Assembly: GCA_035373905.1 (NCBI GenBank)
Contig: DAOSOK010000013.1
Span: 1-51,578 of the forward strand
DNA from: Candidatus Ozemobacteraceae bacterium
GTDB taxonomy: Bacteria; Muiribacteriota; Ozemobacteria; Ozemobacterales; Ozemobacteraceae
Length of the DNA stretch: 51,578 bases
Reading direction: 5' to 3'
Below are positions 12,924-43,161 of the stretch, piece by piece (within the stretch, counting starts at the first letter, position 1; each line of letters opens with the position of its first letter). A program made the position numbers and the translations under genes. The notes beneath the pieces were generated by a model. That model made no database searches. It was not told the origin of the DNA and saw only the letters and a list, made by a program, of their open reading frames with translations.

Positions 12924-12985
12924 GTCGCCCTGGGATTGTCGAAGGGCGAGAGCCTTTCGTGCTTCGACAGGCTCAGCACGAACGG
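12924..12985. repeat. Copy 2 (inverted) of the roughly 62-bp imperfect-hairpin element, lying between the HK and RR genes.
   Basis: See copy 1. The core is TGTCGAAG-ggcgagagcctttcgtg-CTTCGACA. Confidence 0.6.
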
Positions 12986-13053
12986 AACCATGAAACAGAC
13001 TTCCGTCATGCAGGAATCAATGAAGCCGGCACGCCGTGTTGCCGGCCTTGCTT

Positions 13054-14307: not shown

Positions 14308-14309
14308 CG

Positions 14310-15551: not shown

Positions 15552-15761
15552 TATTCCTCATTATGTCCGATCATTCCCGCAAACACAACCCCGGGGAGAA
15601 GGATTTCAGGCTTGAGACGAAAAGAGCCGGTTATCCGCAGATGCCGCAGATTGGACAGATGAACGAAGGACGGACCTGGATAGACACAGCAGAAAGAACC
15701 CCCTCAGAACGAGACAGCCCCCCGGAAGCCGGGAGGCTGTCGCCGATGAATTCGTTTTCGG

Positions 15762-16430: not shown

Positions 16431-16496
16431 GGAAAACCTCCGTTGTCCGTCGATAAGGACTGCGCTCACCCTCATCGGCAGGAATCGGGGTTTCCT

Positions 16497-24557: not shown

Positions 24558-24566
24558 TTGAAGAGA

Positions 24567-26710: not shown

Positions 26711-27583
26711 GTGCCAGGAACAAATGCCGATATACCGAACGGCGGAGTTACTCATCGGGTTGAAACTCCCGGCTTGATCTTCGATCTGCTACCGATCGAA
26801 AAGGTCGCACCCAACCCGAAGCAGCCCCGCAAGATCTTTGACCGCACCACCCTTGAAGAGCTTGCCCAGTCGATCCGTGCGAACGGCGTTCTCCAGCCGA
26901 TTCTCGTCAGACGCTGGGGCGACGGGTATCAGATCATCTCCGGCGAGCGGCGGTATCAGGCCTGCAAGATCGCCGGCCTGACGCAGATTCCCGCCGTCCT
27001 CCGCGACATGAACGAACAGCAGACCCTCCTTGCTGGCCTGATCGAAAACATCCAGCGGGAAGACCTGAATCCCGTAGAAGAGGCGGCGACGCTCCGGCAG
27101 ATTATCCTGGAGTTCGGGTTGACGCACGACGAACTGGCCCGGCGGCTCGGAAGAAGCCGTTCCGCCCTCACGAACCGCCTGCGGCTGCTCTCGCTCCCGG
27201 GTCACGTCCAGCAACTCATCGCGAGCGGAAAGATCTCCGCCGGCCACGCCAAGATGCTGGCAGGGCTCCGCGATCACAGCGAGGTCCAGGCCTGGGTCGA
27301 CCGGATTCTTACCAAGAGCCTCTCGGTATACGAAACGGAAAAGGAACTGGCCGATGCGAAGCCGTCCGGAAACGGGCACCCGGGAAACAGGTCTCGAGCT
27401 TCGGCACCCCGGAAGCAGGCCGGCGATATCCATGTCCGCCAGGTCGAATCACGCATCCAGGAACTGCTCGGCGCCAAGGTACACATCCGGCAGGGCCGCG
27501 CCAAAAGCCGGATCGAGATAGAATTCTATAGCAATGAAGATTTGGAACGAGTCGTAGACATGCTGCTGACCCTTCGCCAGTAA
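26711..27583 (+). CDS. parB: ParB/Spo0J-family partition protein, full length with ParB-box, HTH and C-terminal dimerisation regions; there is no adjacent canonical ParA.
   Basis: LQPILVRR...YQIISGERRYQACKIAGLTQIPAVLRDMNEQQTLLAGLIENIQREDLNPVEEA. Candidate TTGACA-N17-TAGGTT about 60 nt upstream. Confidence 0.85.
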   Translation: MPGTNADIPNGGVTHRVETPGLIFDLLPIEKVAPNPKQPRKIFDRTTLEELAQSIRANGVLQPILVRRWGDGYQIISGERRYQACKIAGLTQIPAVLRDMNEQQTLLAGLIENIQREDLNPVEEAATLRQIILEFGLTHDELARRLGRSRSALTNRLRLLSLPGHVQQLIASGKISAGHAKMLAGLRDHSEVQAWVDRILTKSLSVYETEKELADAKPSGNGHPGNRSRASAPRKQAGDIHVRQVESRIQELLGAKVHIRQGRAKSRIEIEFYSNEDLERVVDMLLTLRQ

Positions 27584-27641
27584 CGGCGAGGAGAGGGCGG
27601 CGAAACCCTGAACTTCGACCGTAAGAAGGGAAACGAGTTCG

Positions 27642-28529
27642 GTGTATATAAAATTCTGGGGTGTCAGAGGATCCGTTCCCGTTCCCGGGAAAGATACGAT
27701 CCGCTATGGCGGAAACACGACCTGTATTGAGATTCGCACGAATGAAGGCCAGCTGATCATCGTCGATGCCGGGACGGGCATCCGTCTTCTCGGTCTCGAG
27801 CTTCTCAAGGGTGATTTCGGCAAGGGGAAGGGCGTCGCGCACATTCTCTTCACCCACTCCCACTGGGATCACATCCAAGGTTTTCCCTTCTTTCCGCCCG
27901 CGTATATCGGCTCGCGCGACGCGTCCGGCGCCCGCGTCGACGGCTCATGCAACACGCTTCATCTGTACGGCGCATCGGACGTCGACGATCGCCTCGAAGC
28001 GACGCTGCGCGGCCAGATGGAACACTTCTACTTCCCGGTCGATCTCAACACCCTGAGCGCCAAACTCACCTTCAATCCCATGCAGGGAAAGCCGATCGAT
28101 ATCGGCGCGGCGCAGATTTCATCCCGCCGTCTCATTCACCCGAACGGCGTGCTCGGGTATCGCATCCAGGACGGCGACAGCAGCGTCGTCGTGGCGACGG
28201 ACTGCGAACATCCGTCGGACGGCTCGATCGATGCGAATCTTCTCGAACTTGCCACCGGAGCCGACCTCCTGATTTACGACGCACAATATACCCCCGAGGA
28301 ATACAACCCCGCGGCCCACGGAAGCCGCGGCCCGAGCAAAATCGGCTGGGGTCATTCGACGATGGTCGAAGGCGCGAAGCTCGCAAAGACCGCCGGCGTG
28401 AAGCACTTGGTTCTCACTCATCACGATCCCCTTCACAACGATGTCGCGATCGATGCGATCGAGAAGCGTGCCAAATCCGAGTTTCCGTCTTCCCAGGCGG
28501 CGTTTGAGGGGCTCGTCATTCAGATCTGA
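27642..28529 (+). CDS. MBL-fold metallo-hydrolase (PhnP/YycJ/RNase-Z-like).
   Basis: HxHxDH motif ILFTHSHWDHIQGF; downstream ATDCEH and LTHHD metal ligands. Confidence 0.75.
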   Translation: MYIKFWGVRGSVPVPGKDTIRYGGNTTCIEIRTNEGQLIIVDAGTGIRLLGLELLKGDFGKGKGVAHILFTHSHWDHIQGFPFFPPAYIGSRDASGARVDGSCNTLHLYGASDVDDRLEATLRGQMEHFYFPVDLNTLSAKLTFNPMQGKPIDIGAAQISSRRLIHPNGVLGYRIQDGDSSVVVATDCEHPSDGSIDANLLELATGADLLIYDAQYTPEEYNPAAHGSRGPSKIGWGHSTMVEGAKLAKTAGVKHLVLTHHDPLHNDVAIDAIEKRAKSEFPSSQAAFEGLVIQI

Positions 28530-28586
28530 TTCTTCCCGGTACCCCCTGTTTCACGACGAACCGGGGTGTGCTACTATTGGGGCGAC

Positions 28587-31500
28587 ATGGGCAGCACCCC
28601 GTTCCTCACACCCGTTTTCCTTTTCGGCTCGATTCGCGGCGGTTCAGGCAAATCGAGCATCGTCGCCCATCTCTCGGTTTACCTCCAGTCGAAAAGCCGA
28701 CGAGTCGCGGTCATCGACGCCAATGCCCCGTTTCCGAACCTTTTCCGCAGCGTTCTCCCCCGTTCCGTCTCACTCGAATGCTACACTGACCTGACGGACC
28801 TGGTGGTCGAGGGGTCGTCGCGGTTCAGACGCACATTCGTTTTCACCGCCACGGACAAGATTTCGTATTTTCCCGCGTTCAAGCTGAAAGACCCGGTGCG
28901 CCTGCTGTCGGATGCTTCCCTCCGCGACTTTTTCCTCCAGCTCCGATCGCACTTCGACGTCGTGCTGATCAACCTGCCGCCCGGCTGCGACAATTTCGTC
29001 GTCGCCGAGACATTCCTGCAGAGACGCGGGAACGATGCGGGGGCACCGGCCGCCGTCCTGGTCACGACGACCGACGTGCGAAGCCTGGCGTTGCTGGACT
29101 CGATGCTCAGGTCCCGGCCGGCGTTGTTTCATTTCGCGCGCGAACGGCTCATGTTCGTCTACAACATGCTTCCGCGCGGCATCGAAGATACGACGATCGA
29201 ACGGGCGCGCCTCAACTGGAACGAGACCCGGCGGTTGTTCCGGCTTCCGATCTCTCTCGGCATATCGATGATCGACGAGTTCGAGGCGCAGGCGAAAGCC
29301 GCCTTGCCCCTCGTCACCCAGGAATCCTCGCTCATCCGGCAGACGATGGCGACCCTGTCAAGAACGCTGTCGGACGTCGCGGAGGGCCAATGGCAAGGAG
29401 ATCCCCCCAAAGGGGAGGCCGACGAGTTCGCCCCCTGTCTCGACAGCTTTCTCCTCGAGCGGCTGAACCGGCACATCGAGCCCCTGCAGAACATTCTCGC
29501 CCGCCGTCTCTGCACGCACGGAGCTATTATATCATCTTTTATAGAATCAAGCGCATCCGCCTACCGCTTTCGTCTTCGCCTTTCCGGCATCGGCCGCCGA
29601 AGCCTCCCGCCGATCCTCGACCTCCACTTCCCGGCCTTCAAGACCGAGCGCGGCGGAAGAATCCCTCCACGATTCACCCTCGATCCCGAATTCGCGCCGC
29701 CGCCGGAGTCCGCTCTCGAGCAGGAGGAACGGCCGTCCATTTCCGCGAAACCGCTGTATCATTTCGACGACCGGTTCGCTTCGAGATGCCGGTTCGATAT
29801 CTTTTCAGAAACTTCTTTTTCCTGGCTCGACGCCATGTCGGACAGGAACCCTGAATGGCGGGGCTACATCGCGCCCTCGGATCTTCCATCCCTTACCCGG
29901 CTTCTCGGGTTTCAGAAGAATCTGCGGAAGCAGGATGCGTTTCTCTTCCAGCGCATCGAGTTCGCTCCGGAGATCAGGCCCTCGCTGATCTCGACGGAGT
30001 TCAACCTCTGCACGTCGTTTTCCTGCCGCGCAGCTTTTCCATGGCTGTTTGACGACCGTCTCCGCGCCGCTCCGGCGAGCGTCGGCCACGTCGCGCTCGA
30101 CATCCCCTCGCGCGAGGCTCTCTCCGTCCCCGCCGGGCCGGATGCGTATCTCGAACTTCCGGGGTTCGTTCGAACGAACCTGGCGCTCATCGCCAGCATC
30201 GTCCCGAAGTCCGAAGACGAGGACCGCGTCACCCGCCAGATACGCGCCGGTATTCACCCGCGCCGAGAGCTGGCCCCCTCCGCCCCCCCGCAACCGCGCT
30301 CGTATCCGCCCGAAACGCGGGCATGTGCGACTCCGGAGCTCACCCCGTTCGAAGCCCGGCGGTCCTCCTTCGCTCTCAGACTTGGCGTTCTGCTGGCCGA
30401 CTTCTCGGCCCTCCCTCACGACACCTCCTTCCTGACCGACGAGATCTGCGCCGGGTTCGAGAAATTCCAGACCGACGCGGCTTTCCAGATACGCCTTCGC
30501 CGCCGGAAACGCCTTGCCTTTCCGTCGACGTCTCCGCTGCCGGGCGAACTCGCCCTCGGATCGATCCCGACTCCGTCCCGCAACCTCCCGATCGCTCCCG
30601 GCCTCGGCCTTTCCCTGCCCCAAACCTTCGGAATAGATTCCGACTCGATCCACGCGCGCGATTCGGCACCTCTCCCGGAATTCATCGGCCGCCTCTTTTT
30701 CGAACCATCGCTCCAACGCGCCGTTCCAATCCCCCCCCCTCCATTCCGCCTGCCACGCCGCTTCGGCATGGCCCCCTTCCTGATCGAACTGACTCTGCCG
30801 CGGATCGCCTGGGGAGACCTTCCCTACCGGGTCGCGGTTCAGGAGACCTCTTCCCGCCCCTCTCCGGCTTCGCTGGATTTCGCCGCCGGCCTCGAAATAT
30901 ACGATTATCTATTCAAACAAGGCATTTCCGGCATATCCCTGCTGAAGAGGCCTCCCAGCATTTCCGTGTTTTTCAAGCCGATGACCTGGTCGTTCAGGAA
31001 CCTCGAGTATGCTCCCGTCACGCGCCGCCCGTTCGACACCCGGAGCGTTTTCCCGGCTGCCTGGAGCCCGGGGAAAATCGCGCAGTATGCCGGTTTCCAG
31101 AGGCTCCAGTCCGGCTCATTCGCCGTCATCGACGTCGACTGCACCGACCACGTGAAACTGCTCAGGCTGCCTTTCCTCCAGCTTCTGGCGCCTTCCGCCC
31201 CCACGAACGCCGCATCATGGGTGTACGGAACCGTCGATGTCGCCCCCGTCCGCGATCCGGCCGTTCCTTCGGAATGCGAGTTCTGGAACCTCTACGAGCC
31301 GGACAACCAGTTTCCCCTTCCGGATTTCGGAAAGCGCCCGGGTCTCGTCTCGTCGGGGCCCATCGTCAGCACCGCAATGCCGCCCCTCTCCACCCCAAAC
31401 CCAGGGCTATGCATATTCGCGTTCGACATCCGCGAGTTCGCCCCTCCCGGGTATCAGCCTCCGGAAACCGCCATCAGCATTCTTTCGGAACCCTACACGA

Positions 31501-32195
31501 TCCTCACGACCCTCCCCTCCTGCCTCGAACCGGTTTCCCCGCGTCGACCACTCTCCATCGGCGAGCGCTGGCTCCTCGTCCGGGCGGCGGCGTGGAACGA
31601 TTCCGCAACGCGCATCCGGCTTCTCGAGCACATGCCGGCCCGATTGAAGTCCCCCACGCTCGACATCATCAAGCCGTATTCGCGGCCGGCTCTCCCTCTG
31701 CCGCCGGTCAGCCCCGAGCCGACCTGCGCCCAGCCTCCCATGCCCCCCAGAACGGATTTTCGGAAGCCATACAGGCACCCCGACCCCGCGATTCTTTTCA
31801 CGCCTGCTTCGCCGGGCCCGCTCCTCAAGAAAGTGTTCCCGCTCGAACTCCTGGCACGACGTTCGAAACTCCCCTACTCGATGGTATCCGGAATCGACAT
31901 GCTGTATGCCTGTCTCATGGATCGCGCCCGAAGATCCCTGTATGGGCCGATCGAGCACAGGCAAACAAAAATCGTCCAACCGCCCCGATTCTGGCGCGAC
32001 ACGCTCGCCGTCTCCAATCCGCCGAAGAAGGCTTCCGCCCACGATATTGACGTGTTCTTCTCCTGCCCCGACCGCATTCATGAGAAAATCGTCCGAAGGC
32101 AGGCGATCCTCGGCTCCCGCGTCACGGGGCTGCTGGAAGCCATCAAACTAACCCAGGCTTCGGTGGATCGCCTCTCTTCCAGCACCCCGTCATGA
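28587..32195 (+). CDS. Giant protein: an N-terminal MinD/ParA-superfamily deviant Walker-A ATPase of about 230 aa, fused to a Pro/Ser/Leu/Phe/Arg-rich region of about 950 aa with no recognisable domains.
   Basis: Deviant Walker A FGSIRGGSGKSSIVAHLSVYL...VAVIDAN. Walker B-like FDVVLINLPPGCDNF. A MinD-like VLVTTTDVRSLALLDSML segment. GC3 of about 80% in this frame over the whole length. The ORF is open from GTG 28566; the ATG at 28587 is preferred. Confidence 0.7.
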   Translation: MGSTPFLTPVFLFGSIRGGSGKSSIVAHLSVYLQSKSRRVAVIDANAPFPNLFRSVLPRSVSLECYTDLTDLVVEGSSRFRRTFVFTATDKISYFPAFKLKDPVRLLSDASLRDFFLQLRSHFDVVLINLPPGCDNFVVAETFLQRRGNDAGAPAAVLVTTTDVRSLALLDSMLRSRPALFHFARERLMFVYNMLPRGIEDTTIERARLNWNETRRLFRLPISLGISMIDEFEAQAKAALPLVTQESSLIRQTMATLSRTLSDVAEGQWQGDPPKGEADEFAPCLDSFLLERLNRHIEPLQNILARRLCTHGAIISSFIESSASAYRFRLRLSGIGRRSLPPILDLHFPAFKTERGGRIPPRFTLDPEFAPPPESALEQEERPSISAKPLYHFDDRFASRCRFDIFSETSFSWLDAMSDRNPEWRGYIAPSDLPSLTRLLGFQKNLRKQDAFLFQRIEFAPEIRPSLISTEFNLCTSFSCRAAFPWLFDDRLRAAPASVGHVALDIPSREALSVPAGPDAYLELPGFVRTNLALIASIVPKSEDEDRVTRQIRAGIHPRRELAPSAPPQPRSYPPETRACATPELTPFEARRSSFALRLGVLLADFSALPHDTSFLTDEICAGFEKFQTDAAFQIRLRRRKRLAFPSTSPLPGELALGSIPTPSRNLPIAPGLGLSLPQTFGIDSDSIHARDSAPLPEFIGRLFFEPSLQRAVPIPPPPFRLPRRFGMAPFLIELTLPRIAWGDLPYRVAVQETSSRPSPASLDFAAGLEIYDYLFKQGISGISLLKRPPSISVFFKPMTWSFRNLEYAPVTRRPFDTRSVFPAAWSPGKIAQYAGFQRLQSGSFAVIDVDCTDHVKLLRLPFLQLLAPSAPTNAASWVYGTVDVAPVRDPAVPSECEFWNLYEPDNQFPLPDFGKRPGLVSSGPIVSTAMPPLSTPNPGLCIFAFDIREFAPPGYQPPETAISILSEPYTILTTLPSCLEPVSPRRPLSIGERWLLVRAAAWNDSATRIRLLEHMPARLKSPTLDIIKPYSRPALPLPPVSPEPTCAQPPMPPRTDFRKPYRHPDPAILFTPASPGPLLKKVFPLELLARRSKLPYSMVSGIDMLYACLMDRARRSLYGPIEHRQTKIVQPPRFWRDTLAVSNPPKKASAHDIDVFFSCPDRIHEKIVRRQAILGSRVTGLLEAIKLTQASVDRLSSSTPS

Positions 32196-35100
32196 GCCTG
32201 TCGCATCTCGGGAAATTTTCCGAACCCGTTTTCGACGCGGCTCTCCCGGCAAAGCCGACGATTTTCCCGGTCGCCCGCCGGGTCGTCAGCCACGCCGCAC
32301 GGTCGCTGTTCGCCGGAAAACTGCTGTTCCCCGTCGCCATTCCCGGGAAGGAAGGACAGCACTGTTTCGCCTCGGATCCCCGACGCCTTTTCCGCATGCC
32401 GCGCGTGAAACATTCCTCCGTTTCCGTTCTTCCGGCCGTCGTCTCGAGAACGAACCACACGTTCGCCCCGCCGCCTCACGCTCAGATCCAGCCCCGACAG
32501 CGACTCGACTTCTCTCCATGCAAACTTCCGCCTCGCCCCGAGCTGCGGCCCCGCGCCCCCGCCTCAATCGGCGCACCGGTCCTCTCTCTCGCGGAAGCGT
32601 GCGCGCAGCCGTCCATCCGCCTCTCCCGGCCTCCCGTGAAGAACCTCAGGGAGCCGCTGTATTTCCAGAAATGCCTCATCTCCCGCTTCGAGATTTCCCG
32701 TCTTCGCCGGATGGCGCAGGCATCCGACTGGCAGTCCGTCTCGAAACCGCCTGCGGATCTCGTTCCTGCGTCGCCCCTGCCGGAACCATGGAATTGGTTC
32801 GCTCTTTCGGCGCGGGGCCGGGCCGACCGTTCATCAGTCATGACACGCCCCCTGCAGGCCGGTCCTCTCGATCCTCCCCGGCCCCGGCTTCTCTACCCGA
32901 CCGCAACGCGAAGGCCGTCCCTCATGCCCCCCCTCTGGAAATTCCTTGCGCACGGCCGGCACGCCGTTTCCGCCTGGCGGCCTGTCTGCCGTCTGCCGAC
33001 CGGGCCTCTCTCCATCCTGTCGTTGCAGAGGCGGCTTCCTTTCGCGGAGCTCCTTCCCGAAGGTCCTCCCCCGGCACCGATAGACAGGGATGTATATCTA
33101 TCTATATATATTTCGGACGCTCTTTCCATCCGGCCCCATTCTTTCATCGCGGAATTTTCTCACGGCCGAAGCCGGGTTCGGCCGGCGGCCCACTCCGGCA
33201 TCGCTCCGGTTTTTCATCCCGACGCTCGCCTCGCCGCCCCGACCGCCCACTCGGGAACCGTGACGGAGATCATCACGAATATCGCCCGCGCACGTCTTGC
33301 CGACATCCGGGGTGTTCCGCCGGCCCGACTGGCCAGGAAATGGCCTCACGCCGTCTTCCGACCGCTTCGGCAACTTTTGTTCCGCAAGCCGTTTGCGAAG
33401 CGCTTCGATTTCCCCCCCCCTGAACCACCCGGATTCAACGTCATCGCGCCCAGATCATTCGCTTCTCTCCGCCCCGTCAGCGGAGATCTCCGCGCGGCAA
33501 TGAAGAATGAACCAGACGCCGCCAGAGCGAAGCCCGCCGAGCGGCGCTCCCGCAGTTCGTTCAGCCATTCTCCGATGGAGCGTTTCCTGGCGAAGACCGG
33601 ACTTCATCTTCCCGACGCCCGCGTGTCCGATCTCCGCATCTCCGCCATTCAGCCGGCTCCCGTGATGTGCCCCGGCGGCGCGACCCGCAAGGGCGTCAGA
33701 CAAGCGCTCGGCATGCCCGAACGCCGTGCCGTCGCCGAAAAGGCCCTGTTCACTCCGAGAGAAAAGCAGCGCACGACGTTCAGGACATCGGCCGTTCCCG
33801 CGCAACCCAACGTTCACGCTTCAGAACTTCGCGTTCCCGTTCCCGCCATGCAGGTGCTGTGCCTGACCGCCGCTCCTCGCGGCCCCAGGCCTCTTGCGCT
33901 TCCCAGACGCCTCCCGCCCGCCGGCGAGCCTGAACGCATGCTCAGACTCATCGCCTCGCTTCCCCGCAGAGCCCATTCGACAAGGCATTACCTGCTGACG
34001 CTCGAATCGAACCTCATGCCCTGGAAGCAACGTTCACAGCCCCGACGCACCCGGGTCGCCCTGCCCAGAGAGCTCCTGGTTCCTCGCTCGCCCTCCTTCG
34101 CCAGGGAAGTCATGCTCCCCCAGGATTTCCAAGCGGTTTCACCCGCCTCGAAACGCGCCTTTCTCACCACGGGCATCAGCACGGCCTTTCTCTCTCTCCG
34201 CGAAGCCGCCCTGCCGGCTTCCCTCCGCATCGCGCACGACCGGCCCCGCCTTTCACCGACGCCATCGCCACCCCCGACGTCCGTTGCAGGGGCCCGGTTT
34301 CTCGACGCCCCCGAATGGATTCGCCCCGCCCGCCAGCCCAGAATGAAAATCCGTTACTGGCCCACATTCTATGAACTCTCGCCCACGACGCCGGCCGTCG
34401 GCATGCGGCTTTCGGAACTCGGCCGCGCCGCCCTGCCGCCGGCCCCGGCGTCACGAGCGATCGCATCCCTCGCCGGCGTCTTCGGCATCAGACGGCGCGA
34501 TCGCCCCCGCGGCCCGTACAGCATGCGACAGCCGAAACGCTGGCTTTTGAAGACGAACGCGGCCGCGATCGGCGTTCCCGACGTCTGCCTCCACGAAATG
34601 GCTCTTCCAACGACCTCCCCGTCGAGACTCGACTCGGGCGAGCGTCACCCGCCCGCCTTCATGGGCCCGGCGTTCCGCGCCCCCTGGACGTCGGTCGTCA
34701 TCAGACCGGAGGAGCTCCGTCAGTTCGTTGCGGAACCCGCGGCCCCCCCGCCCCCCGAGCGGCTCCCGCACTGCAGGGCCACGACACGGCCGGCCACCGA
34801 GCCCGCCCTCTCGTTCCAGGAGGCGCCGATGCCCCGCGTCATTACGACCGCGAGACTTTCCCCTCTGTCTCCTCCCGGAGAGACGTTCGTCATCAGCTTC
34901 GGCCCCCAATCCTTCAGACCGGTCGGCCCCGCCGTATCCGGCGCTCGATGCGAACCGCCCGGTGAAGTCCGGCTCGACTCCCTGCGAATCATCGAACCGT
35001 TCGTCGAACTCCGGCCGGATCTTTTCGCCGACGAGTTCGGGGAACCGGCGGCAGGCGGCGGCTTCTTCATCCGCGACCTTCTCTGCGATCTCATCGTCGT

Positions 35101-36235
35101 CCGCGGCGATCACTATGCACGCTGGCGAAGCCTTTTTTTCCCGTACAAGCCCGACGTTCGAGGCCTCGGCGACGTATCCGACGCTCCGCTCGAGCCGACG
35201 CCCGAATCCTTCATGCAAACCCTGCTCGACGGAATGGGACCGCTCGAACTCGCTCCCGGCATTCTCGCCATGCGGCGGGAGCATGAGGAGCCTCCGACGG
35301 TAAGAGACGAAAAAGTACCTTTCCCGTTTGCTCCGGGACATCTCCGCGCCGAACCCTTCAGCAGACTTCCCGTCCTCTTGTCAGACGTCTTCGGATTCGA
35401 CATCCTCGAGGCTCCGGCCGCGCCGGCCGAGGAATGGGATTTTTCGACATCGATGTATGTGCCGTTCATCCCGGCTCCCCTGCCGAACATCCTACCGCGT
35501 GAGGACGGCCTCGCAGCCGCCTCGTCTCCGTTCCCTCAATCTTTTTCGGAGCCGGTTCCGTCCGTTTCCTGGCCCCGCCGGCATCCCGCGGTATCCGAAG
35601 CATTCCCGTCGCTCGAACAGCCCGGCAATCATGCGATCATCATCGCCGGTCGATGGAACCGCAAACTTCCCGTCGACGGCGGGTTCCGTGTGCGCCACTC
35701 GATATCATCCCCAACGCTGTTTTCCGGCGTTCACCGGCTGGAACTGCCTGCTCTTCCCCCAGAGGCTTTCCAGGCCTTGCACATCGTCGATCTCGCACCG
35801 GCCACAATCGTCTGTCACACGTTGCTGAATCCCGTTGCATCGCCTGCGGCGCGACTGGCGACTCCAGCGTCTTCCGGTCCAAGCATTCCGTCGGACACGG
35901 TTTCGGCATCTCGCACGGCCGTCCTTCCGTTCGCGCGGCCGTTGCTCCATTTGCCTGCCGGGCGGTACAGGCAGCACGAGGTTTCGGGAGTTGGCGCAGG
36001 CAGACGGATTTCCTTCCGGAAACAGGAGTTCGGCTTCGCCCTTTCCCCCATCGGCGTCTTTCCTTCGCTGGCCCTGCCGATGCTCGAACGAAAGGAGCGG
36101 CGGTGTTCCTCGAAGTTCAAAATCTCCATTCCCGGAAAGGCAGCCGTTCATCCGGCCGCGATTCCCGACTGGGTGGAGCTGTCGTCCGCACGACCGGCGT
36201 GCAGACCTCCGGCCGGCCTACAAACACCTACATGA
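32192..36235 (+). CDS. Second giant (1347-aa) Pro/Ala/Arg/Ser/Leu/Phe-rich protein with no recognisable domain; its start overlaps the stop of the preceding gene (ATGA).
   Basis: A 4-kb uninterrupted frame with coding-type third-position GC bias. Its composition matches the tail of the preceding protein. The antisense ORFs across it are Arg/Gly-rich GC-shadow ORFs. Confidence 0.65.
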   Translation: MSLSHLGKFSEPVFDAALPAKPTIFPVARRVVSHAARSLFAGKLLFPVAIPGKEGQHCFASDPRRLFRMPRVKHSSVSVLPAVVSRTNHTFAPPPHAQIQPRQRLDFSPCKLPPRPELRPRAPASIGAPVLSLAEACAQPSIRLSRPPVKNLREPLYFQKCLISRFEISRLRRMAQASDWQSVSKPPADLVPASPLPEPWNWFALSARGRADRSSVMTRPLQAGPLDPPRPRLLYPTATRRPSLMPPLWKFLAHGRHAVSAWRPVCRLPTGPLSILSLQRRLPFAELLPEGPPPAPIDRDVYLSIYISDALSIRPHSFIAEFSHGRSRVRPAAHSGIAPVFHPDARLAAPTAHSGTVTEIITNIARARLADIRGVPPARLARKWPHAVFRPLRQLLFRKPFAKRFDFPPPEPPGFNVIAPRSFASLRPVSGDLRAAMKNEPDAARAKPAERRSRSSFSHSPMERFLAKTGLHLPDARVSDLRISAIQPAPVMCPGGATRKGVRQALGMPERRAVAEKALFTPREKQRTTFRTSAVPAQPNVHASELRVPVPAMQVLCLTAAPRGPRPLALPRRLPPAGEPERMLRLIASLPRRAHSTRHYLLTLESNLMPWKQRSQPRRTRVALPRELLVPRSPSFAREVMLPQDFQAVSPASKRAFLTTGISTAFLSLREAALPASLRIAHDRPRLSPTPSPPPTSVAGARFLDAPEWIRPARQPRMKIRYWPTFYELSPTTPAVGMRLSELGRAALPPAPASRAIASLAGVFGIRRRDRPRGPYSMRQPKRWLLKTNAAAIGVPDVCLHEMALPTTSPSRLDSGERHPPAFMGPAFRAPWTSVVIRPEELRQFVAEPAAPPPPERLPHCRATTRPATEPALSFQEAPMPRVITTARLSPLSPPGETFVISFGPQSFRPVGPAVSGARCEPPGEVRLDSLRIIEPFVELRPDLFADEFGEPAAGGGFFIRDLLCDLIVVRGDHYARWRSLFFPYKPDVRGLGDVSDAPLEPTPESFMQTLLDGMGPLELAPGILAMRREHEEPPTVRDEKVPFPFAPGHLRAEPFSRLPVLLSDVFGFDILEAPAAPAEEWDFSTSMYVPFIPAPLPNILPREDGLAAASSPFPQSFSEPVPSVSWPRRHPAVSEAFPSLEQPGNHAIIIAGRWNRKLPVDGGFRVRHSISSPTLFSGVHRLELPALPPEAFQALHIVDLAPATIVCHTLLNPVASPAARLATPASSGPSIPSDTVSASRTAVLPFARPLLHLPAGRYRQHEVSGVGAGRRISFRKQEFGFALSPIGVFPSLALPMLERKERRCSSKFKISIPGKAAVHPAAIPDWVELSSARPACRPPAGLQTPT

Positions 36236-36298
36236 TGCGTTGACTTGCCCTCGGTCATGAAGTTAGAATGCCCGTAAGTTCCGCCTGAGAGGAAGAAC

Positions 36299-37081
36299 AT
36301 GAATTTTATCTCCATGTATGACAAAGGCATGGTCCGACCAAACAACGAGGACTACACAGAGAGTTTCCAGTGGAACTGGTGCAGTTGCACGGGCGTCCAG
36401 GAGTCGTTCACGGCTCTCATCGTGGCAGACGGCATGGGCGGCGCCGCCGCCGGCGAGTATGCATCCTCGCTCGCCGTGAAAACCATCAAAGAGAAGCTCC
36501 AGGCCAGTCTCCTGTCGGACAACGTCGAGGCCGTCCTCGCGGGGGACCTTCGGGAAGCGCTGGCCGGCTACTGCAAAGAGGCGAACGCGGCGATCTATTC
36601 CAAGGCCCAGGCGAACCCTGAGATGGAGGGCATGGGAACGACAATCGTCATAGCTATTATATGTCGTGATATGCTCACGCTGTGCCACGTGGGTGACAGC
36701 CGCTGCTACATGCACCGGGAAAACCGCCTGAAGCGTCTCACCCGAGATCATTCTCTCGTTCAGGAGTTGATCGACGCAGGCAAGATCGCTCCCGACCAGG
36801 CGGAAAAGCATCCGAACAAAAACGTGATCACACGGGCGCTCGGCGTAGCCGCAACGGTCGAGCCGGAGTGTTCACGGCTTCCGATTTTCACGGGGGACGT
36901 CCTGGTCCTCGGGAGCGACGGTCTGTGCGGCTTCGTGGACGAACACACGATCAAGGACATGGTCGAGAAGCAGGCTTCCCAGCCCAACGCGAATCTCAAG
37001 CAACTCGCCCAGAACCTTATCGAGTGCGCCAACATGAACGGAGGCGCCGACAATATTTCCGTCTGCCTCTATCGCCACTGA
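36299..37081 (+). CDS. PP2C-family Ser/Thr protein phosphatase (Stp1/PrpC-like, cytoplasmic).
   Basis: RPNNEDY, ALIVADGMGGAAAGEYAS, TLCHVGDSRCY, LVLGSDGL and GGADNISV motifs. GAGAGGAAG ribosome-binding site upstream. Confidence 0.85.
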   Translation: MNFISMYDKGMVRPNNEDYTESFQWNWCSCTGVQESFTALIVADGMGGAAAGEYASSLAVKTIKEKLQASLLSDNVEAVLAGDLREALAGYCKEANAAIYSKAQANPEMEGMGTTIVIAIICRDMLTLCHVGDSRCYMHRENRLKRLTRDHSLVQELIDAGKIAPDQAEKHPNKNVITRALGVAATVEPECSRLPIFTGDVLVLGSDGLCGFVDEHTIKDMVEKQASQPNANLKQLAQNLIECANMNGGADNISVCLYRH

Positions 37082-37103
37082 CGCCTGACGGGTAGCCCCG
37101 ACC

Positions 37104-38879
37104 ATGACCGATCCGCGGGATACCCGACACACATCCGGTCCCGATCGAAGCGTCGAGGATATGGACGCGCTCGCCCGCGAAATCGACGAACTCGCGAGAC
37201 AGCGCGAGCGGATCTTCCAGGCGCTGAAGCCGACCTCCGCACCAGCCGCCGCAGGCCTTGCCGAGCGCGCCGATCGGCTCGAGGCCGAAAACCGGCAGCT
37301 GAAGGAGCGGATCACCGCACTCGCCGAGTCGAGTTCCGGCCCCCTGGCCGACAAACTTCGAAGAACCGAGGAACTTCTCGAGGAGCGCACGCACGAACTC
37401 CAGCAGATGCGCCTGCAGAGTGCGTCCGAAGCTGCCCTTCTCGAGGAGATGAAGAAGCAGAATGCCGAGATCGAGCGGCTCAAAGCCCGGCTGTCCGAAG
37501 CCGACAAGGAGAAGCCCGATATTGCGGCACTCCAGGACGAACTCCGGAGGCTGAAGCTCAACCTCGCCGACGCGGTTCTCGAGCAGAAGCAGGCCGGCGC
37601 CACGAGCCAGGAGCTCCTGAAGCAGATTTTCGAGCTCAAGCAGGAGGTGTTCCAGCACCAGTCGCAGGTCAGGGACCTCACTGCACGACTCGATCTGAGC
37701 AAGCGGAACGAACAGGCCCTTTCCGAGCAGGAAAAAAAGCAGCAACTCGAACTCGCCGCCCTCCGCGCCGCGGTCGAGGAGTCGGCCCGGCAGATAGACA
37801 GACTGCAAGAGCAGACCCAAAGTCTCTCCGCCGAACGCGAGAAGGCCCTGGAGGAACTCGAGAAGGCACGCGCCGCCGCCGCCGAGTTCCAGACGGCGTT
37901 CACGAACCTCAAGGCGGAATACGAAGCCGAGAAGATCCAGCGGCAGGCGGCCGAAACCCGCGAGCATGAGATCGTGACGTCGTTCGACGCGATCAATCAG
38001 GAACGCCTGCTCCTCAAGGAAAAAGTCTCGCGGCTTCTCGTCGGCGTCAAGGCGTATATCACCCCGCCGTCGCGGCCCGCATCGTCGACGCCCGAGGACG
38101 GGGCCCTCGAGCCCAAGGAGATGCGGCCCTACATCCCCTTCTGCTTCCCCGACCGTCTCCCTGCGCAACTGCGCCCCCACTGGAAACGGACAAAGCGCCT
38201 TCCGCTCGTCACGCCGCCGGGAAGCCTGGTCACCGTTCGTATGGACGAGTTCAACAGACCGATTCGCAAACCGTTGCTGCAGACATACCGGTTCCGCGAG
38301 CTGGTGTGCCCGCCGACCTCGGCCCTGCCGACCGAGCCATATCTGCATTCCTTCCCCAGAGATTTTTCCATCGTCGCATCTCCTCTCGAATTTTCGTTCG
38401 CGGCGGCCCGATCGTCACATCCGTTCCCGGGGCCGTCGCGGCTCGAGGGCGTCGAACGCCGTTTCCCGCCCAGATCGCCGATCATCGAGTTCTCCGAAAA
38501 AATGGTTGTTCCGCCGATCGAGACGAAGGTTTTCACCACGTCGGTCGCCATGTTTTTCGACTACCTCGCAAGCGACATCATCACCGCGTTCCGGAACAGC
38601 ATGTACCGCCTCGGATACCGGTATCCGGCAGGTTCTTCCCCTCGGGAACTCATGTTCGGCCCCGAAACGAAAACGATCTCATCGGGAAGGGTTGCCTTAC
38701 ACACCACTTCTCATCTACAATTCGCGTTGCGTTACCCGGTACGCACGGAACTGCCCCCGCGATTCCCGCAGGACCGGCTCAAATATCTGCTGCGAACGAT
38801 CGGAGACTCGCTCTCTTCCATGATGGCCCGGCTTGACGACAACGAACCCGACGACGACTCGGAACCCAAACGAACGTAA
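37104..38879 (+). CDS. Coiled-coil protein (about 310 aa of heptad-rich helix) with a Pro/Phe/Arg-rich C-terminal half.
   Basis: Long runs with the character E..L...L..E...L between residues about 20 and 330. The C-terminal composition matches the giant proteins. It starts 22 nt after the PP2C stop. Confidence 0.65.
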   Translation: MTDPRDTRHTSGPDRSVEDMDALAREIDELARQRERIFQALKPTSAPAAAGLAERADRLEAENRQLKERITALAESSSGPLADKLRRTEELLEERTHELQQMRLQSASEAALLEEMKKQNAEIERLKARLSEADKEKPDIAALQDELRRLKLNLADAVLEQKQAGATSQELLKQIFELKQEVFQHQSQVRDLTARLDLSKRNEQALSEQEKKQQLELAALRAAVEESARQIDRLQEQTQSLSAEREKALEELEKARAAAAEFQTAFTNLKAEYEAEKIQRQAAETREHEIVTSFDAINQERLLLKEKVSRLLVGVKAYITPPSRPASSTPEDGALEPKEMRPYIPFCFPDRLPAQLRPHWKRTKRLPLVTPPGSLVTVRMDEFNRPIRKPLLQTYRFRELVCPPTSALPTEPYLHSFPRDFSIVASPLEFSFAAARSSHPFPGPSRLEGVERRFPPRSPIIEFSEKMVVPPIETKVFTTSVAMFFDYLASDIITAFRNSMYRLGYRYPAGSSPRELMFGPETKTISSGRVALHTTSHLQFALRYPVRTELPPRFPQDRLKYLLRTIGDSLSSMMARLDDNEPDDDSEPKRT

Positions 38880-38933
38880 ATCACCGCTTCCCGGTATTCA
38901 TTCCATTCAGAGACGCATGACGCAGGAGGACCC

Positions 38934-41072
38934 ATGAAACGCACGTATCTGCAGGACGAGGCGAACACCCACTACAACCTCGGTATCGCCTATTACACGA
39001 AGGGACAGTATGAACTGGCCATCTCGGAGTGGATCCAGTCGCTGATCAAGAATCCGCAGAACGGCGAGGCGCGCTTCAAGCTCGGCGTCGCCTACTACCA
39101 GCTCAACCGCATCGACGAAGCCCTGAAGGAATGGGAGATGGCGGTGCAGCTCGACCCGCGCAACTTCGAGGTGCTGCACAACCTCGGCATCGCCTACTAC
39201 AACAAGGGCGACGACTCGAAGGCGATCGAGAATTGGGAACTCTGCCTCGAAATCAAGCCGCAGGATCCCGAGATCCATTTCAAGCTCGGTATCGCCTACT
39301 ACAACCTCGGCAAGGAAGACCGCGCCATCACGCTCTGGGAAAAGGGCACCAACCTCAACCCCGAGGATTCCGACATCTTCTTCCGGCTCGGCGTCGCCTA
39401 TTACAACAAGGGCCTCGACGACAAGGCCGTGCTCTCGTTCTCGAAGGCGATCGAGCTGAACCCCAAGAACTCCGAGGCGCACAACAATCTCGCCATCGTC
39501 TACTACCGCCTCGAGATGTACCCCCAGGCCATCGACGAGTGGAAGAAGGCGCTCGCGCTCAGCCCGCGCCAGCCCGAGATCTACAACAATCTCGGCAACG
39601 CCTACAGCAAGCTCAATCAACACCGGGAGGCGATCGAGATCTGGCAGAAGATCCTCGAGATCACGCCGCAGAACGCCGAGGTGCTGTTCAAGCTCGGCTC
39701 GGCCTACGGCAAGCTCGACGATCTCGACAAGGCCATTGAATACTGGAGTCAATGTATCTCCGTCAACCCGAACGACATCGAGGCGCAGTTCAACCTCGGC
39801 GTCGCGTTTTACAATAACGGCAACTTTAAAAAGGCCATCACCTACTGGAACACCGTCCGCGAGAAGCGCAGCGAGGACGCCGACATCTGCGAGAAGATCG
39901 GCAACGCCTACTGCGGCCTCGAGGACTTCGCCGAGGCGGCAAAGTTCTGGAACCGCGCCGTGTCCTACATGCCCGACGACGCGCAACTGCACCACAAGCT
40001 CGGCATCGCCTATTCCAAGCTGAACAAGACCCAGGAGGCGATCTTCCAGTGGCAGAAGTCGGTCGAGCTCGACCCGAACCACTTCGAAGCGCACCACAAT
40101 CTCGGCATCGCCTTCTACAACCTGCAGCGGTTCGACGAGGCCCAGAAAGAGTGGGAAAAGGCCCGCGAGCTGAGCGGCAACGACCCCGACATCTACTTCA
40201 AGCTCGGCCACGCCTACCGCCAGAAACGCCGCCTCGACGAGGCGATCGCCTCCTGGAAGAAGGCGATCGAGCTCGATCCGAGCAACTCGAACGCCCACTT
40301 CGTGCTCGGCAACGTGTATGACGAGAAGGGGCTGATCGACGACGCCATCCTCTCGTGGCGGCGCGTCGTCGAGCTGTCGCCGAACGACATCGACGCGCAC
40401 AACAACCTCGGCATCGCCTACTTCCAGAAGAACCTGTTCGACAAAGCCATCGCCGAGTGGGAGGACGCGATCCGCATCACCCCCGAGAACGGAGAGCTGT
40501 ACAACAAGCTCGGCATCGCCTACATCAAGATGGACCTGTTCGACAAGGCCGTCGAGTGCTGGGAAAAGGCCCTCAAATACAAGCCCGAGGACGCCGACAT
40601 CCTCTCGAACCTCGCGACCGCCTACCACAACCGCGAGATGTACGACAAGGCGATCGACATCTGGAAGCGCGTCATCAAGTACAACCCGCAGGACGCCGAG
40701 GCCCGCAACAAGCTGGGCATCGCCTACTACAACAAGGGCATGTACGACCAGGCGATCGAGCTGTGGAAGAAGGCGATCGAGCTCAACCCGAAGGACGCCG
40801 CCGCCTACTACAACATCGGCACCGAGGAGTTCGAGAAGGGTCGTATAGCGGAAGCTATAACAGCCTTCCGCAAGGTGCTCGAGATCGACCCGAAGTTCAA
40901 CCAGGTGCATTACAACCTGGCGATCATCTACGCGCGCAAGCGCCAGTTCGGCGACGCCGTCGAGTCGGCCCGCCGCTACCTGCAGATCAGCCCGACGGGC
41001 GTCGAGGCCGACAACCTGAAAACCCTGATCGACCAGTGCGAGCACGAACTGGAGCAGAACGCCGAGGTCTGA
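38934..41072 (+). CDS. TPR protein with about 20 very regular tandem 34-aa repeats.
   Basis: Reiterated consensus A..NLGIAYYNKG..D.AIE.W.KA.EL.P...E across 712 aa. Confidence 0.85.
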   Translation: MKRTYLQDEANTHYNLGIAYYTKGQYELAISEWIQSLIKNPQNGEARFKLGVAYYQLNRIDEALKEWEMAVQLDPRNFEVLHNLGIAYYNKGDDSKAIENWELCLEIKPQDPEIHFKLGIAYYNLGKEDRAITLWEKGTNLNPEDSDIFFRLGVAYYNKGLDDKAVLSFSKAIELNPKNSEAHNNLAIVYYRLEMYPQAIDEWKKALALSPRQPEIYNNLGNAYSKLNQHREAIEIWQKILEITPQNAEVLFKLGSAYGKLDDLDKAIEYWSQCISVNPNDIEAQFNLGVAFYNNGNFKKAITYWNTVREKRSEDADICEKIGNAYCGLEDFAEAAKFWNRAVSYMPDDAQLHHKLGIAYSKLNKTQEAIFQWQKSVELDPNHFEAHHNLGIAFYNLQRFDEAQKEWEKARELSGNDPDIYFKLGHAYRQKRRLDEAIASWKKAIELDPSNSNAHFVLGNVYDEKGLIDDAILSWRRVVELSPNDIDAHNNLGIAYFQKNLFDKAIAEWEDAIRITPENGELYNKLGIAYIKMDLFDKAVECWEKALKYKPEDADILSNLATAYHNREMYDKAIDIWKRVIKYNPQDAEARNKLGIAYYNKGMYDQAIELWKKAIELNPKDAAAYYNIGTEEFEKGRIAEAITAFRKVLEIDPKFNQVHYNLAIIYARKRQFGDAVESARRYLQISPTGVEADNLKTLIDQCEHELEQNAEV

Positions 41073-41115
41073 CCACGGCAGGTCCGGCGGTTTTCACTCC
41101 TGCTGAAATCATGAA

Positions 41116-41138
41116 GGGGCGGGTTTCAAACCCGCCCC
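41116..41138. repeat. Perfect GC-rich palindrome GGGGCGGGTTT-C-AAACCCGCCCC between convergent genes; a candidate bidirectional terminator or REP-like element.
   Basis: Seen directly. A near-identical copy is at 51165..51187. Confidence 0.6.
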
Positions 41139-41176: not shown

Positions 41177-43012
41177 TTACCAATCGTGCCGTATGATGCC
41201 ACCGCCGTCGGCGTTCACGTCGAGAATCGCGTTGGCGCCTTCCTGCCAGCGGAATGAACCGTCCGCCATCTTCATCAGGAACTTGTATTCGAACACGGCG
41301 CCGATCGGGAGCTCCAGACTCGTCATCCACGTGAGGTCACCCGTTTTCGTAAGGCGGGGCAGTCTCTCGGCCTTCGAATTCCAGTCGCCGAGCTGGGGAA
41401 GACCGCCAATGAGATGGATGGCGGCTCTGTCAGGAAGCTCCTCGTCGAGTTTCAGTTCGAACGAAATCTTCTTCCGCCCCCGAGCGAACGGATCCAACCG
41501 GGACCGCAGGAGCATCTCGTGCTCGCGAGTCCAGCGTCCCGGGATGTCGGCATCGATGACGAACAGGGCGCAGCGCAAACCGCCGAGCTTCACGCGGAGC
41601 GTTCCGTCAGTTATATTTGCCGATATACATCCAAGAAGGTCGTTCACAGCCGCTGGTTTCCGGGCAGGCGCCGGGAGAGGGACGTTCAGGTCCCGGGAGG
41701 CGGTCGCAAAGTTGAAAACCACAATTGCCTGTTGATCGGGTGTCAACCGCCCGAAGGCATACATGTCACGATCCATTGCGAGATGAATCTGCATACCGCG
41801 GGTCAGGGCCGGATGGCTCTTTCTGACTGCGATCAGTTTTTTCGTTTCGCCAAGAATGGGATTGCCGGCTTCGAACCGCATCGATCTCCTCGTCGAACAC
41901 CAGGGTTCGATCGCACCGTCCAGCCCGATTTCGTCGCCGTAACAGAGGGTCGGGATGCCGCGCGCCGTGAGGAGCAGGCTGAGTGCGAGCAGGTAGCGGT
42001 CGCGATTGCCGCCGCAACTCGTGATGAACCGATCGAGGTCGTGGTTGTCGAGGAACGTCGCGAGCAGGCCGGCGTCGGGATACACCCGATCCATGGCGAA
42101 TCTCACGCCGAGCTGGCGGGCGTCGCCTCCGCGGGAGATCACGTCGCGCAGGGTGTAATAGAGCGGATAATCGAACAGCGTGCCGAACGATCCCGCGTTC
42201 CAGGCGTCGGATAGCGTCGCGGGGTTCCCGTCCATCAGTTCGCCGAGCGTCAGAAATCCCTCGCCGTATCGTTCACGAAGACCGGAATTGAACGTCTTCC
42301 AGAACGAGATCGGCACATGTTTCACCGCATCGAGTCGGAAGCCTGCCGGTCTGATCTGCTCCACCCAGTATTTTGCCACCGAGGAGAAAAACCGTTGAAC
42401 GACGGGCTTTTCGCTCGCGAAATCGGGCAGGCCGAACAGGCGGTATGACTCGAGCTGGTTCCGGTCGTTCCAGTCCGTGATGTTGCCGTTCGCATGGAAC
42501 CAGTCCGGATGCAACGCTGCGATGGGAGCGTCGTAGCCGGCATGATTCACGACCATGTCAAGCAGCAGGGCGAGGCCCCTGCGATCCATGTCGTCGCGCA
42601 GCTCCCGAAGCTTGCGCATCGTGCCGAATCTCGGGTCGACCCTGAAGAAATCCCAGATCCAGTATCCGTGATACGCCTGCTGCCCGTAGAACGGCATGGG
42701 CCGGTTCCGGGCGACGGGACTCAGCCAGACGCCGGTGACGCCGAGATCGGTCAGCCAGTCGAGTCGCGCTCGCAGGCCGTCGATATCGCCGCCGTGAAAC
42801 CCGCGCGGGTCCCGCGGATTGACGTCGAAATCGTCGCACGGGCAGCCGTTCTCGAAGCGGTCGAGCAGGACGAAATACAACACCTGGTCGCGCCAGGAGT
42901 CGATCGTCCGGGATTGGCCGCAACGGCCGGCCGGCACGGCGGCGAGAAGCAGAACCACGCAAGTGACGAAGGCCCGGAACGCCGTTCCGAACGGTTTCGT
43001 ATATTTCAACAT
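41177..43012 (-). CDS. Secreted GH13 alpha-amylase-family enzyme with a C-terminal starch-binding (CBM20-like) domain.
   Basis: GH13 regions LDMVVNHAGYD, GFRLDAVKHV and FLDNHDLDRF. C-terminal LPQLGDWNSKAERLPRLTKTGDLTWMTSLELPIGAVFEYKF. Signal peptide MLKYTKPFGTAFRAFVTCVVLLLAAVPA. GGAGGA ribosome-binding site 6 nt upstream of the ATG at 43012. Confidence 0.8.
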   Translation of the reverse strand: MLKYTKPFGTAFRAFVTCVVLLLAAVPAGRCGQSRTIDSWRDQVLYFVLLDRFENGCPCDDFDVNPRDPRGFHGGDIDGLRARLDWLTDLGVTGVWLSPVARNRPMPFYGQQAYHGYWIWDFFRVDPRFGTMRKLRELRDDMDRRGLALLLDMVVNHAGYDAPIAALHPDWFHANGNITDWNDRNQLESYRLFGLPDFASEKPVVQRFFSSVAKYWVEQIRPAGFRLDAVKHVPISFWKTFNSGLRERYGEGFLTLGELMDGNPATLSDAWNAGSFGTLFDYPLYYTLRDVISRGGDARQLGVRFAMDRVYPDAGLLATFLDNHDLDRFITSCGGNRDRYLLALSLLLTARGIPTLCYGDEIGLDGAIEPWCSTRRSMRFEAGNPILGETKKLIAVRKSHPALTRGMQIHLAMDRDMYAFGRLTPDQQAIVVFNFATASRDLNVPLPAPARKPAAVNDLLGCISANITDGTLRVKLGGLRCALFVIDADIPGRWTREHEMLLRSRLDPFARGRKKISFELKLDEELPDRAAIHLIGGLPQLGDWNSKAERLPRLTKTGDLTWMTSLELPIGAVFEYKFLMKMADGSFRWQEGANAILDVNADGGGIIRHDW

Positions 43013-43161
43013 ATTGTTCCTCCGTCGCCGGTCACGAAAAGGCGTTTCACAGGTGCCGGCTTCCATGGTAGGATACCCTCGAGGGTCGGATGTTCCACCA
43101 TCTTACGAGGTCGCGGTGATTTCTTCAACGATGACGAGAACGGATACCGGGAGGCAGGCTG

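Follow-up and report, generated by a model that had tools for sequence, protein, structure and literature searches.

Seven consecutive genes on the forward strand of a Candidatus Ozemobacteraceae (Riflebacteria) metagenome-assembled genome (MAG) encode, in order, a chromosomal-type ParB, an MBL-fold metallo-hydrolase, two giant proteins (g1, with a MinD/ParA-like head fused to a long tail, and g2, an orphan polycation), a PP2C phosphatase, a coiled-coil protein (CC) and a TPR-repeat protein of 712 residues (TPR712). The stretch of DNA analyzed (51.6 kb, referred to below as the window) contains the whole set. On the evidence of the loci compared, this cluster is vertically inherited and specific to Riflebacteria; a literature search found no published description of it. 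The favored reading, to which a probability of about 0.4 is given, is that the products would make up a large nucleotide- and phosphorylation-controlled scaffold on the nucleoid, similar in kind to the PomXYZ and McdAB systems but not homologous to them.

The gene order parB-MBL-g1-g2-PP2C-CC-TPR712 is kept in ~30 Riflebacteria loci from genomes of 27-71% GC. (The comparison set consisted of 8 independent loci retrieved through a protein index and 25 species-representative genomes retrieved by pattern scan; synteny was tabulated with tblastn and order was judged wherever the contig was long enough.) The sequence-only reading had staked its proposal of a single operon-like unit on conservation of this neighborhood across genomes, and the conservation is strong; a comparable cluster was not found outside Riflebacteria. 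The core order persists in loci whose flanks have been replaced (L007, L010 and L011): upstream of the cluster, L007 has radical-SAM and kinase genes in place of scpAB, and L011 has rpoC and the genes for ribosomal proteins L13 and S9. Describing the cluster as led by ParB is accurate for every locus with enough upstream DNA, but not for L010.

An exhaustive search of 1.84 billion cluster representatives with a g1 hidden Markov model (HMM) yielded 61 family members at E < 1e-10; beyond these, E-values jump to ~1e-6 or worse and the matches are generic P-loop proteins. The homologs are named Candidatus Ozemobacteraceae or Riflebacteria, every named member belonging to the latter, and the complete proteins are almost all 1186-1218 aa long (~45 full-length representatives). 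The ratio of nonsynonymous to synonymous substitution rates (dN/dS), computed against an ortholog (83% identical for g1 and 70% for g2), is 0.19 for g1 and 0.31 for g2, with all 150-codon windows below 0.5; values stay below 1 along all genes of the cluster. Homologs of the same length and this purifying selection together establish the giant open reading frames (ORFs) as real genes. Evolutionary rates nevertheless differ ~80-fold among the genes of the cluster.

Some irregularities of public records touch these loci. In L005 (13579-17481) the public gene call takes in no more than the C-terminal 470 aa of g2, whose ORF is intact at 1300 aa, and in L007 (16883-19016) the TPR gene is called as two pieces of 243 and 480 aa, an apparent split that is due to a run of N in the scaffold. 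The sequence of ParB is unchanged on contig JAKPPM010000117.1 of assembly GCA_029547365.1. Two MAGs (L034 and L036) labeled Candidatus Avigastranaerophilus, a Melainabacteria genus name, carry Riflebacteria-type parB-MBL-g1-g2 with the same neighbors. Spread of the cluster to another phylum was considered on this account and rejected: the neighboring genes are themselves of Riflebacteria type, which points to a problem of taxonomic labeling or binning.

The seven forward-strand ORFs lie at the positions first assigned to them, separated by 58, 36 or 57, -4, 63, 22 and 54 bp. The second of these values depends on the start of g1 (28566/28587-32195), for which the sequence-only reading had left a GTG at 28566 as an alternative; the ATG at 28587 is almost certainly correct, since every homolog starts at the corresponding methionine (MG..). 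The start of g2 (32192-36235) overlaps the stop of g1 by 4 nt, and in all loci the two genes either overlap, by 4 nt or 1 nt, or are 8-13 nt apart. A junction this tight everywhere suggests that g1 and g2 are translationally coupled. No terminator-like site was found on the forward strand between genes of the cluster, where gaps do not exceed 63 bp, and the cluster contains no tRNA or Rfam element (promoter and terminator scans of the window gave counts not above those of shuffled sequence). All seven products are predicted cytoplasmic members of the operon, and none has a transmembrane segment or an N-terminal hydrophobic stretch. Downstream, between the convergent TPR712 and α-amylase genes, lies the GC-rich palindrome that had been proposed to end the cluster (41116-41138); its two 11-nt arms pair perfectly, with a folding energy of -27.6 kcal/mol (z = -4.3). 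The intrinsic-terminator scan did not detect it. Although it lacks a U tract, it is probably a bidirectional terminator hairpin.

The N-terminal P-loop domain of g1 (28587-29400) had been read from sequence as a ParA/MinD-class ATPase, with the caveat that it might be a chance match. The fold is genuine. AlphaFold2 (AF2) models built from an 11-sequence alignment give per-residue confidence (pLDDT) of 80-93 for residues 10-270, and Foldseek matches this head in the PDB to ParA, MinD, FlhG, HypB, BcsQ, MipZ and McdA at E 1e-8 to 1e-5, with template-modeling scores (normalized to the target) of 0.55-0.68 and no one subfamily favored. The head is also the slowly evolving part of g1 (dN/dS 0.03-0.06). 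What does not stand is the catalytic part of the assignment. The Walker A motif is S-I-R-G-G-S-G-K-S: in family alignments the P-loop GK[ST] is intact (G21, K22 and S/T23 are invariant), but the signature lysine of KGGxxGK[ST], located by alignment to MinD (1g3q), is never present, its place being taken mostly by arginine and by histidine in the two most divergent g1 lineages, L010 and L011. The Walker B aspartate is likewise absent, replaced by an invariant asparagine (VLIN-LPPG, where MinD has ILIDCPAG; CapB also has aspartate at this position). In switch I/Walker A', the first aspartate (D51, ORF numbering) is invariant, and the second varies with lineage among N, S and D.

Curated family models give a consistent picture. 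Only residues ~19-60 of g1 match the CbiA, MinD and ParA models of Pfam, and these matches are below gathering scores (CbiA 25.1 against a cut-off of 25.4; ParA 18.5 against 27.1; MipZ 17.2 against 20.7); for minD_bact the score is 23.5 against 212.9. A profile of the head searched against the PDB finds CapB at E 2e-6, archaeal MinD at 1.5e-5, MipZ at 2e-3 and ParA at 2e-2, with BceF also among the best matches. By these alignments and scores, the g1 head truly belongs to the MinD/ParA fold, of which it makes up an isolated clade, but lacks the catalytic residues by which ParA/MinD are defined. Loss of the signature lysine need not abolish a switch: McdA forms a nucleotide-sandwich dimer without its Walker A signature lysine (PMC6582323), and a switch function for the g1 head therefore remains plausible.

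The 712-residue protein at the other end of the cluster (TPR712, 38934-41072) consists of 20-21 TPR repeats (Pfam TPR_2 in 20 stretches, with 18-20 repeats scored) and is acidic (net charge -23), g1 and g2 being basic. Its near-invariance, unusual for a TPR protein, is the most striking feature of the cluster and went unremarked in the sequence-only reading. Deep lineages have proteins 82-95% identical to that of the window (loci L003, L005, L009, L010, L015 and L022-L033), and over all lineages the range is 82-100%, while at the same loci tryptophanyl-tRNA synthetase (TrpRS) has 72-74% identity, ParB 57-63% and the MBL protein 58-76%. In five lineages whose genomes range over 27-70% GC and whose genes range over ~0.3-0.95 in GC content at third codon positions (GC3), 523 of 714 alignment columns (73%) are invariant. 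Comparison with the closest relative gives a dN/dS of 0.004 and a dS of 0.158, a third of that of the neighboring genes. Its codon bias is the strongest in the window, with an effective number of codons (ENC) of 30.2 and a GC3 of 0.92. (These orthologs were collected through synteny; direct homolog search is uninformative, returning generic TPR proteins at no more than 38% identity.) Near-invariance combined with codon bias is the signature of an abundant, surface-constrained protein, and suggests that TPR712 is very abundant and constrained over its whole surface, as a hub or a self-assembling element would be.

Quite different constraints are evident in the proteins that lie between. The g1 tail (29401-32195) comprises ~930 low-complexity, fast-evolving residues (dN/dS 0.13-0.38) that are hardly alignable beyond residue ~450, and yet the total length of g1 is constant. 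Conserved islands stand out in it: RxRxR at ~334-338, PLYxFDDRF at ~396-404 and a C-terminal helix motif of ~25 aa. Beyond residue 334, pLDDT is below 50. The 1347-aa g2 has a net charge of +73, and in six lineages this charge stays between +69 and +95 regardless of GC, arginine giving way to lysine as GC falls. Its length is 1300-1600 aa across lineages, and conservation is limited to the N-terminal ~60 aa and scattered short islands such as ARWRSLFFPY. AF2 models of g2 residues 1-1200 have a mean pLDDT of 28 with nothing above 50, short helices appearing only at the conserved islands; the g1 head folds from an equally shallow alignment, and g2 and the g1 tail do not. Homologs of g2 (P0014-P0019) were found, although BLAST fails to detect g2 between deep lineages. 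The 591-aa CC product (37104-38879) had been credited with a coiled coil of ~300 aa, and one of ~310 aa is found, followed by a tail that holds the invariant motif LEPKEFxPYIPFCFPDRLP; PYIPFCFPDRLP is a conserved island of CC. The protein falls in no Pfam family and gives only weak SMC and coiled-coil matches.

That the giant proteins belong to no recognizable family holds up: g2 has no match in Pfam, NCBIfam, PDB or PADLOC. The Pro-rich composition said to be shared by g1, g2 and CC fares less well as a property in its own right. Proline amounts to 14-20% at 60-70% genome GC and ~6% at 35-40% GC; since proline content follows genome GC, Pro-richness is compositional drift and is not conserved. 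What is conserved in the giants is length, the net charge of g2, short islands and purifying selection. The likeness of the three products is thus one of composition, but not of descent: paralogous tails were considered and rejected, pairwise hhalign giving no homology among g1, g2 and CC. A candidate docking motif common to the three, [FYW][PDE][DE][RK][FLIM], was likewise dropped; it is present in g1 and CC, and absent in g2 and in low-GC lineages.

ParB (26711-27583) is canonical, as first described: ParB_N, HTH_ParB and ParB_C score 109.6, 111.3 and 27.6 bits, and TIGR00180 184.6 bits, all above their cut-offs. In ortholog alignments the GERR CTP-binding box is invariant, and the HTH and dimerization domains are kept. 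The N-terminal ~25 aa vary among seven orthologs, and in none of these was LG[RK]GLxAL, the usual ParA-activating peptide of ParB, found. The observation that no soj/parA lies beside parB extends well beyond the window, in which no Soj- or MinD-like gene is found elsewhere: over 615 kb of Riflebacteria loci from ~25 species (~10 kb to either side of parB), nothing Soj- or MinD-like was detected except g1. In at least 20 species parB is separated from g1, which lies downstream, by the MBL gene alone, and scpA and scpB are in the divergent neighborhood of parB (L001 annotation).

These facts invite a reading of the cluster as a variant ParABS system in which g1 replaces Soj as the ParA partner of ParB, its tail and g2 serving as a nucleoid tether. 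The position of parB two genes upstream of g1, the absence of a canonical parA near parB in the loci compared, the proximity of scpAB and a ParB whose lack of an activating peptide would fit an altered partner all speak for it, as does the annotation of one g1 homolog by NCBI as MipZ, a ParB-binding ATPase. On the other hand, the order is parB-MBL-g1 instead of parA-parB, the L010 locus keeps the remaining six genes with no parB at all, g1 has neither signature lysine nor Walker B aspartate, its profile is nearer CapB and MinD than ParA, and its MipZ score is under the Pfam cut-off. A variant ParABS system is unlikely, though it is the alternative that best survives.

The MBL gene (27642-28529), which is always directly upstream of g1 (L010 included), encodes a Lactamase_B_2 protein (69 bits) whose HxHxDH motif is intact as HSHWDH. 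No other enzyme of the cluster is as well conserved: identity across lineages is 58-98% and dN/dS is 0.027. It resembles RNase Z and cyclic-nucleotide phosphodiesterases and is an equivalog of neither; its TIGR02651 score is 72.9, against an RNase Z cut-off of 292.95, and only its C-terminal half (~100 aa) matches RNase Z in the PDB, at E 1e-9. The cluster might be an RNA- or nucleotide-processing body with the MBL protein, taken as RNase Z/J-like or as a cyclic-nucleotide phosphodiesterase, as catalytic core and g2, the g1 tail and CC as an RNA-binding scaffold like that of RNase E bodies. The constraint on the enzyme and its place next to g1 even where parB is missing would suit such a body, as would its nearest solved relatives being RNase Z and the strong positive charge of g2. 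Yet the low equivalog score, the match restricted to half the protein and the failure to detect an RNA-binding domain in any protein of the cluster make a processing body distinctly improbable, and it would leave the P-loop switch and the linkage to ParB unexplained.

The phosphatase (36299-37081) is of the PstP/Stp1 Ser/Thr type: it scores 248 bits with NF033484 (Stp1/IreP; cut-off 230) and matches PstP and Stp1 in the PDB at E 1e-34. It is soluble, with no transmembrane segment, and no Hanks-type kinase is encoded in the operon. The missing kinase leaves room for a phospho-signaling system in which the g1 head phosphorylates the giant tails in the manner of a bacterial tyrosine kinase (BY-kinase), with PP2C as antagonist; CapB and BceF are the best profile matches of the head in the PDB, and BY-kinases, like g1, lack the signature lysine. 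This proposal is very doubtful, in that neither the DxDxR of Walker A' nor the Walker B aspartate is conserved, the C-terminal tyrosine cluster is absent, and the E-values for MinD are nearly equal. The phosphatases known to act against BY-kinases are, moreover, of the PTP or PHP type and not PP2Cs.

It is just as hard to credit that the genes have no joint function, g1 and g2 being fast-evolving lineage-specific ORFans with unrelated roles held together by inherited synteny only: the wider region (scpAB, trpS, the TPR and HD genes) is also syntenic in most lineages, so that conservation of order is partly a genome-wide property, rates within the cluster are widely disparate and the codon bias of TPR712 is distinct, but the core order survives replacement of the flanks over 27-71% GC, g1 and g2 overlap or are at most 13 nt apart everywhere, and the short intergenic gaps contain no forward-strand terminator-like site. 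An anti-phage defense system was also considered and rejected, PADLOC giving weak generic PP2C and coiled-coil hits only and the locus being fixed and universal in the phylum.

The controlled nucleoid scaffold is favored over these alternatives. Its list of parts (a switch, a coiled coil, an α-solenoid, polycationic and low-complexity proteins, and a phosphatase) matches that of nucleoid-associated ParA/MinD organizers such as PomXYZ and McdAB. In outline, the g1 head would bind nucleotide and act as a slow or non-hydrolyzing dimerization switch, not as a fast ParA-type motor. The polycationic g2 would bind nucleic acid non-specifically and, with the g1 tail and the coiled-coil protein, form a multivalent, possibly condensate-like assembly. 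Islands in the tails of g1, g2 and CC would dock on the superhelix of abundant, acidic TPR712, which would serve as the hub. PP2C would reverse Ser/Thr phosphorylation that tunes assembly. ParB (with no adjacent ParA and no recognizable activating peptide) might link the assembly to the origin region, and the MBL protein would supply some phosphodiesterase activity. A positioning function for the cluster is, at this stage, pure inference. More speculative still, and rather a long shot, is the proposal that Riflebacteria have replaced the ParA motor of chromosome and cell organization by a machine of their own, in which a TPR712 lattice or hub would recruit two disordered proteins of megadalton scale, g1 (as a non-hydrolyzing switch) and the polycation g2, into a phospho-regulated, ParB-linked condensate or cytoskeleton that coats the nucleoid.

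Several observations weigh against the scaffold reading. By profile, the g1 head is as close to BY-kinases as to MinD, and its best PDB match is a BY-kinase; lacking the signature lysine and the Walker B aspartate, it could be a pseudo-ATPase or have a quite different role. The parts are not everywhere present together: in L010 (27% GC; 1-17483) parB is absent between the YfiO-like TPR gene and the MBL gene while MBL-g1-g2-PP2C-CC-TPR is kept, the CC gene is missing in the low-GC gut lineages L007, L031 and L032, and L034 has an inverted TPR gene and no PP2C. TPR712 may be transcribed from a separate promoter and differ in expression level. The parS sequence TGTTTCACGTGAAACA was not found in the 51.6-kb window with up to 3 mismatches allowed, although a divergent parS is possible. 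In a charge-hydropathy plot the g1 tail falls on the "compact" side, and the AF2 alignments are shallow (7-11 sequences), so that disorder is suggested and not proven. Finally, no docking motif is common to g1, g2 and CC, and binding of their tails to TPR712 is therefore conjectural.

ParA/MinD ATPases are a general bacterial means of placing chromosomes, division sites and organelles, and those that have been studied are, to our knowledge, all small proteins with the signature lysine. Were the controlled scaffold to exist as proposed, its switch would stand apart on three counts: a giant scaffold forms part of the same polypeptide, the canonical catalytic residues are gone, and the partners include a phosphatase, an MBL hydrolase and a hub whose rate of evolution is below that of a tRNA synthetase. 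The cluster would be a natural test case for the organization of bacterial cytoplasm by disordered polycations and repeat hubs. Riflebacteria are noted for their many orphan, phylum-defining gene families (PMC10849945), and the cluster gives context to several of these genes. Its practical value is limited for now, as Riflebacteria have no cultured member.

Next to the cluster, on the reverse strand (22882-26541), lie four divergent genes: 25291-26541 encodes a YfiO-like TPR protein, 23877-24557 an HD_5 phosphohydrolase, and the other two encode uncharacterized proteins of 245 and 332 aa. These genes adjoin parB in most lineages, even in those without scpAB and trpS (L007 and L011), and may share the functional neighborhood of the cluster. 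Two reverse-strand genes of the α-amylase family lie at 9066-11387 and 41177-43066, one of them with a CBM48 domain; the gene directly downstream of the cluster has CBM20 in orthologs and keeps this position in several lineages. Over g1 and g2 (28000-36000) the GC skew is strongly negative (to -0.24), because C-rich codons (Pro, Ser, Leu and Arg) are on the coding strand. A skew maximum at ~26 kb could have marked an origin or terminus, but this was rejected because on both sides of it, as throughout the window, the sign follows gene orientation.

Elsewhere in the window, an ankyrin-repeat gene (45927-47108) differs in composition from its surroundings (GC 0.53, GC3 0.57 and ENC 55; the GC and GC3 of its neighbors are ~0.60 and 0.8), and its ORF overlaps the end of the preceding gene, which encodes a 975-aa SpoIIE-type phosphatase. 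It may have been acquired horizontally. Two fusions are unusual: an 816-aa protein (198-2648) joins γ-glutamyltranspeptidase to a transglutaminase core, and one of 432 aa (7142-8440) joins an adenylate/guanylate cyclase to an RDD membrane domain.

Among characterized relatives of the fold, BcsQ of cellulose secretion is similar to g1 in its MinD fold (Foldseek E ~1e-6; the Pfam and TIGR BcsQ hits are weak and below cut-offs), and E. coli BcsQ also has arginine at the signature position. Unlike g1, it is a protein of ~250 aa that has lost the P-loop lysine, and the Riflebacteria cluster has no cellulose synthase genes. BY-kinases (CapB, Wzc and BceF) share with the g1 head the same fold and a P-loop without the signature lysine. 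They differ from it in having DxDxR (g1 has D-x-N/D, with no arginine), the Walker B aspartate and the C-terminal tyrosine cluster, and there is neither a transmembrane activator nor a polysaccharide gene near g1. The likeness to ParABS (Soj/Spo0J) and MipZ-ParB lies in a canonical ParB with its CTP motif two genes upstream of the ParA/MinD-fold g1, with scpA and scpB close by; the differences are that no parA lies upstream of parB, that ParB has no activating peptide, that the window has no parS consensus, and that g1 does not have the deviant Walker A motif and scores under the MipZ and ParA cut-offs.

The carboxysome-positioning system McdAB is similar in two respects: McdA, like g1, has a ParA fold without the Walker A signature lysine, and it is partnered with an adjacent orphan adaptor protein that is largely disordered, as g1 may be with g2 (PMC6582323). 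McdA differs from g1 in that it keeps the Walker B aspartate and hydrolyzes ATP, and that it has a substitute lysine from helix 8 (PMC6582323). McdA and McdB are small proteins, and no microcompartment genes are found at the Riflebacteria cluster.

The resemblance to PomXYZ, which positions the division site of Myxococcus xanthus (PMC10307791, PMC11725790), was already suggested by the sequence-only reading and holds at the level of ingredients. No homology was seen at the sequence level, in that no protein of the cluster hit a Pom family in the Pfam and NCBIfam scans; the likeness is one of architecture. PomXYZ combines a ParA/MinD ATPase with a coiled-coil scaffold and a condensate-forming protein of α-solenoid repeats and an intrinsically disordered region (PMC10307791). 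On the nucleoid it makes up an assembly of megadalton size, as the Riflebacteria products are proposed to do on a large scale. In the Riflebacteria cluster, the ATPase-like head lacks the signature lysine and the Walker B aspartate and is fused to a tail of ~930 aa, and an MBL protein, a PP2C, a ParB and a polycation of 1300-1600 aa are added that have no counterpart in PomXYZ. The kinds of parts are otherwise the same, with an α-solenoid that is built of HEAT repeats in the one case and of TPRs in the other, and with long regions of biased composition on both sides, disordered in PomXYZ and perhaps so here.

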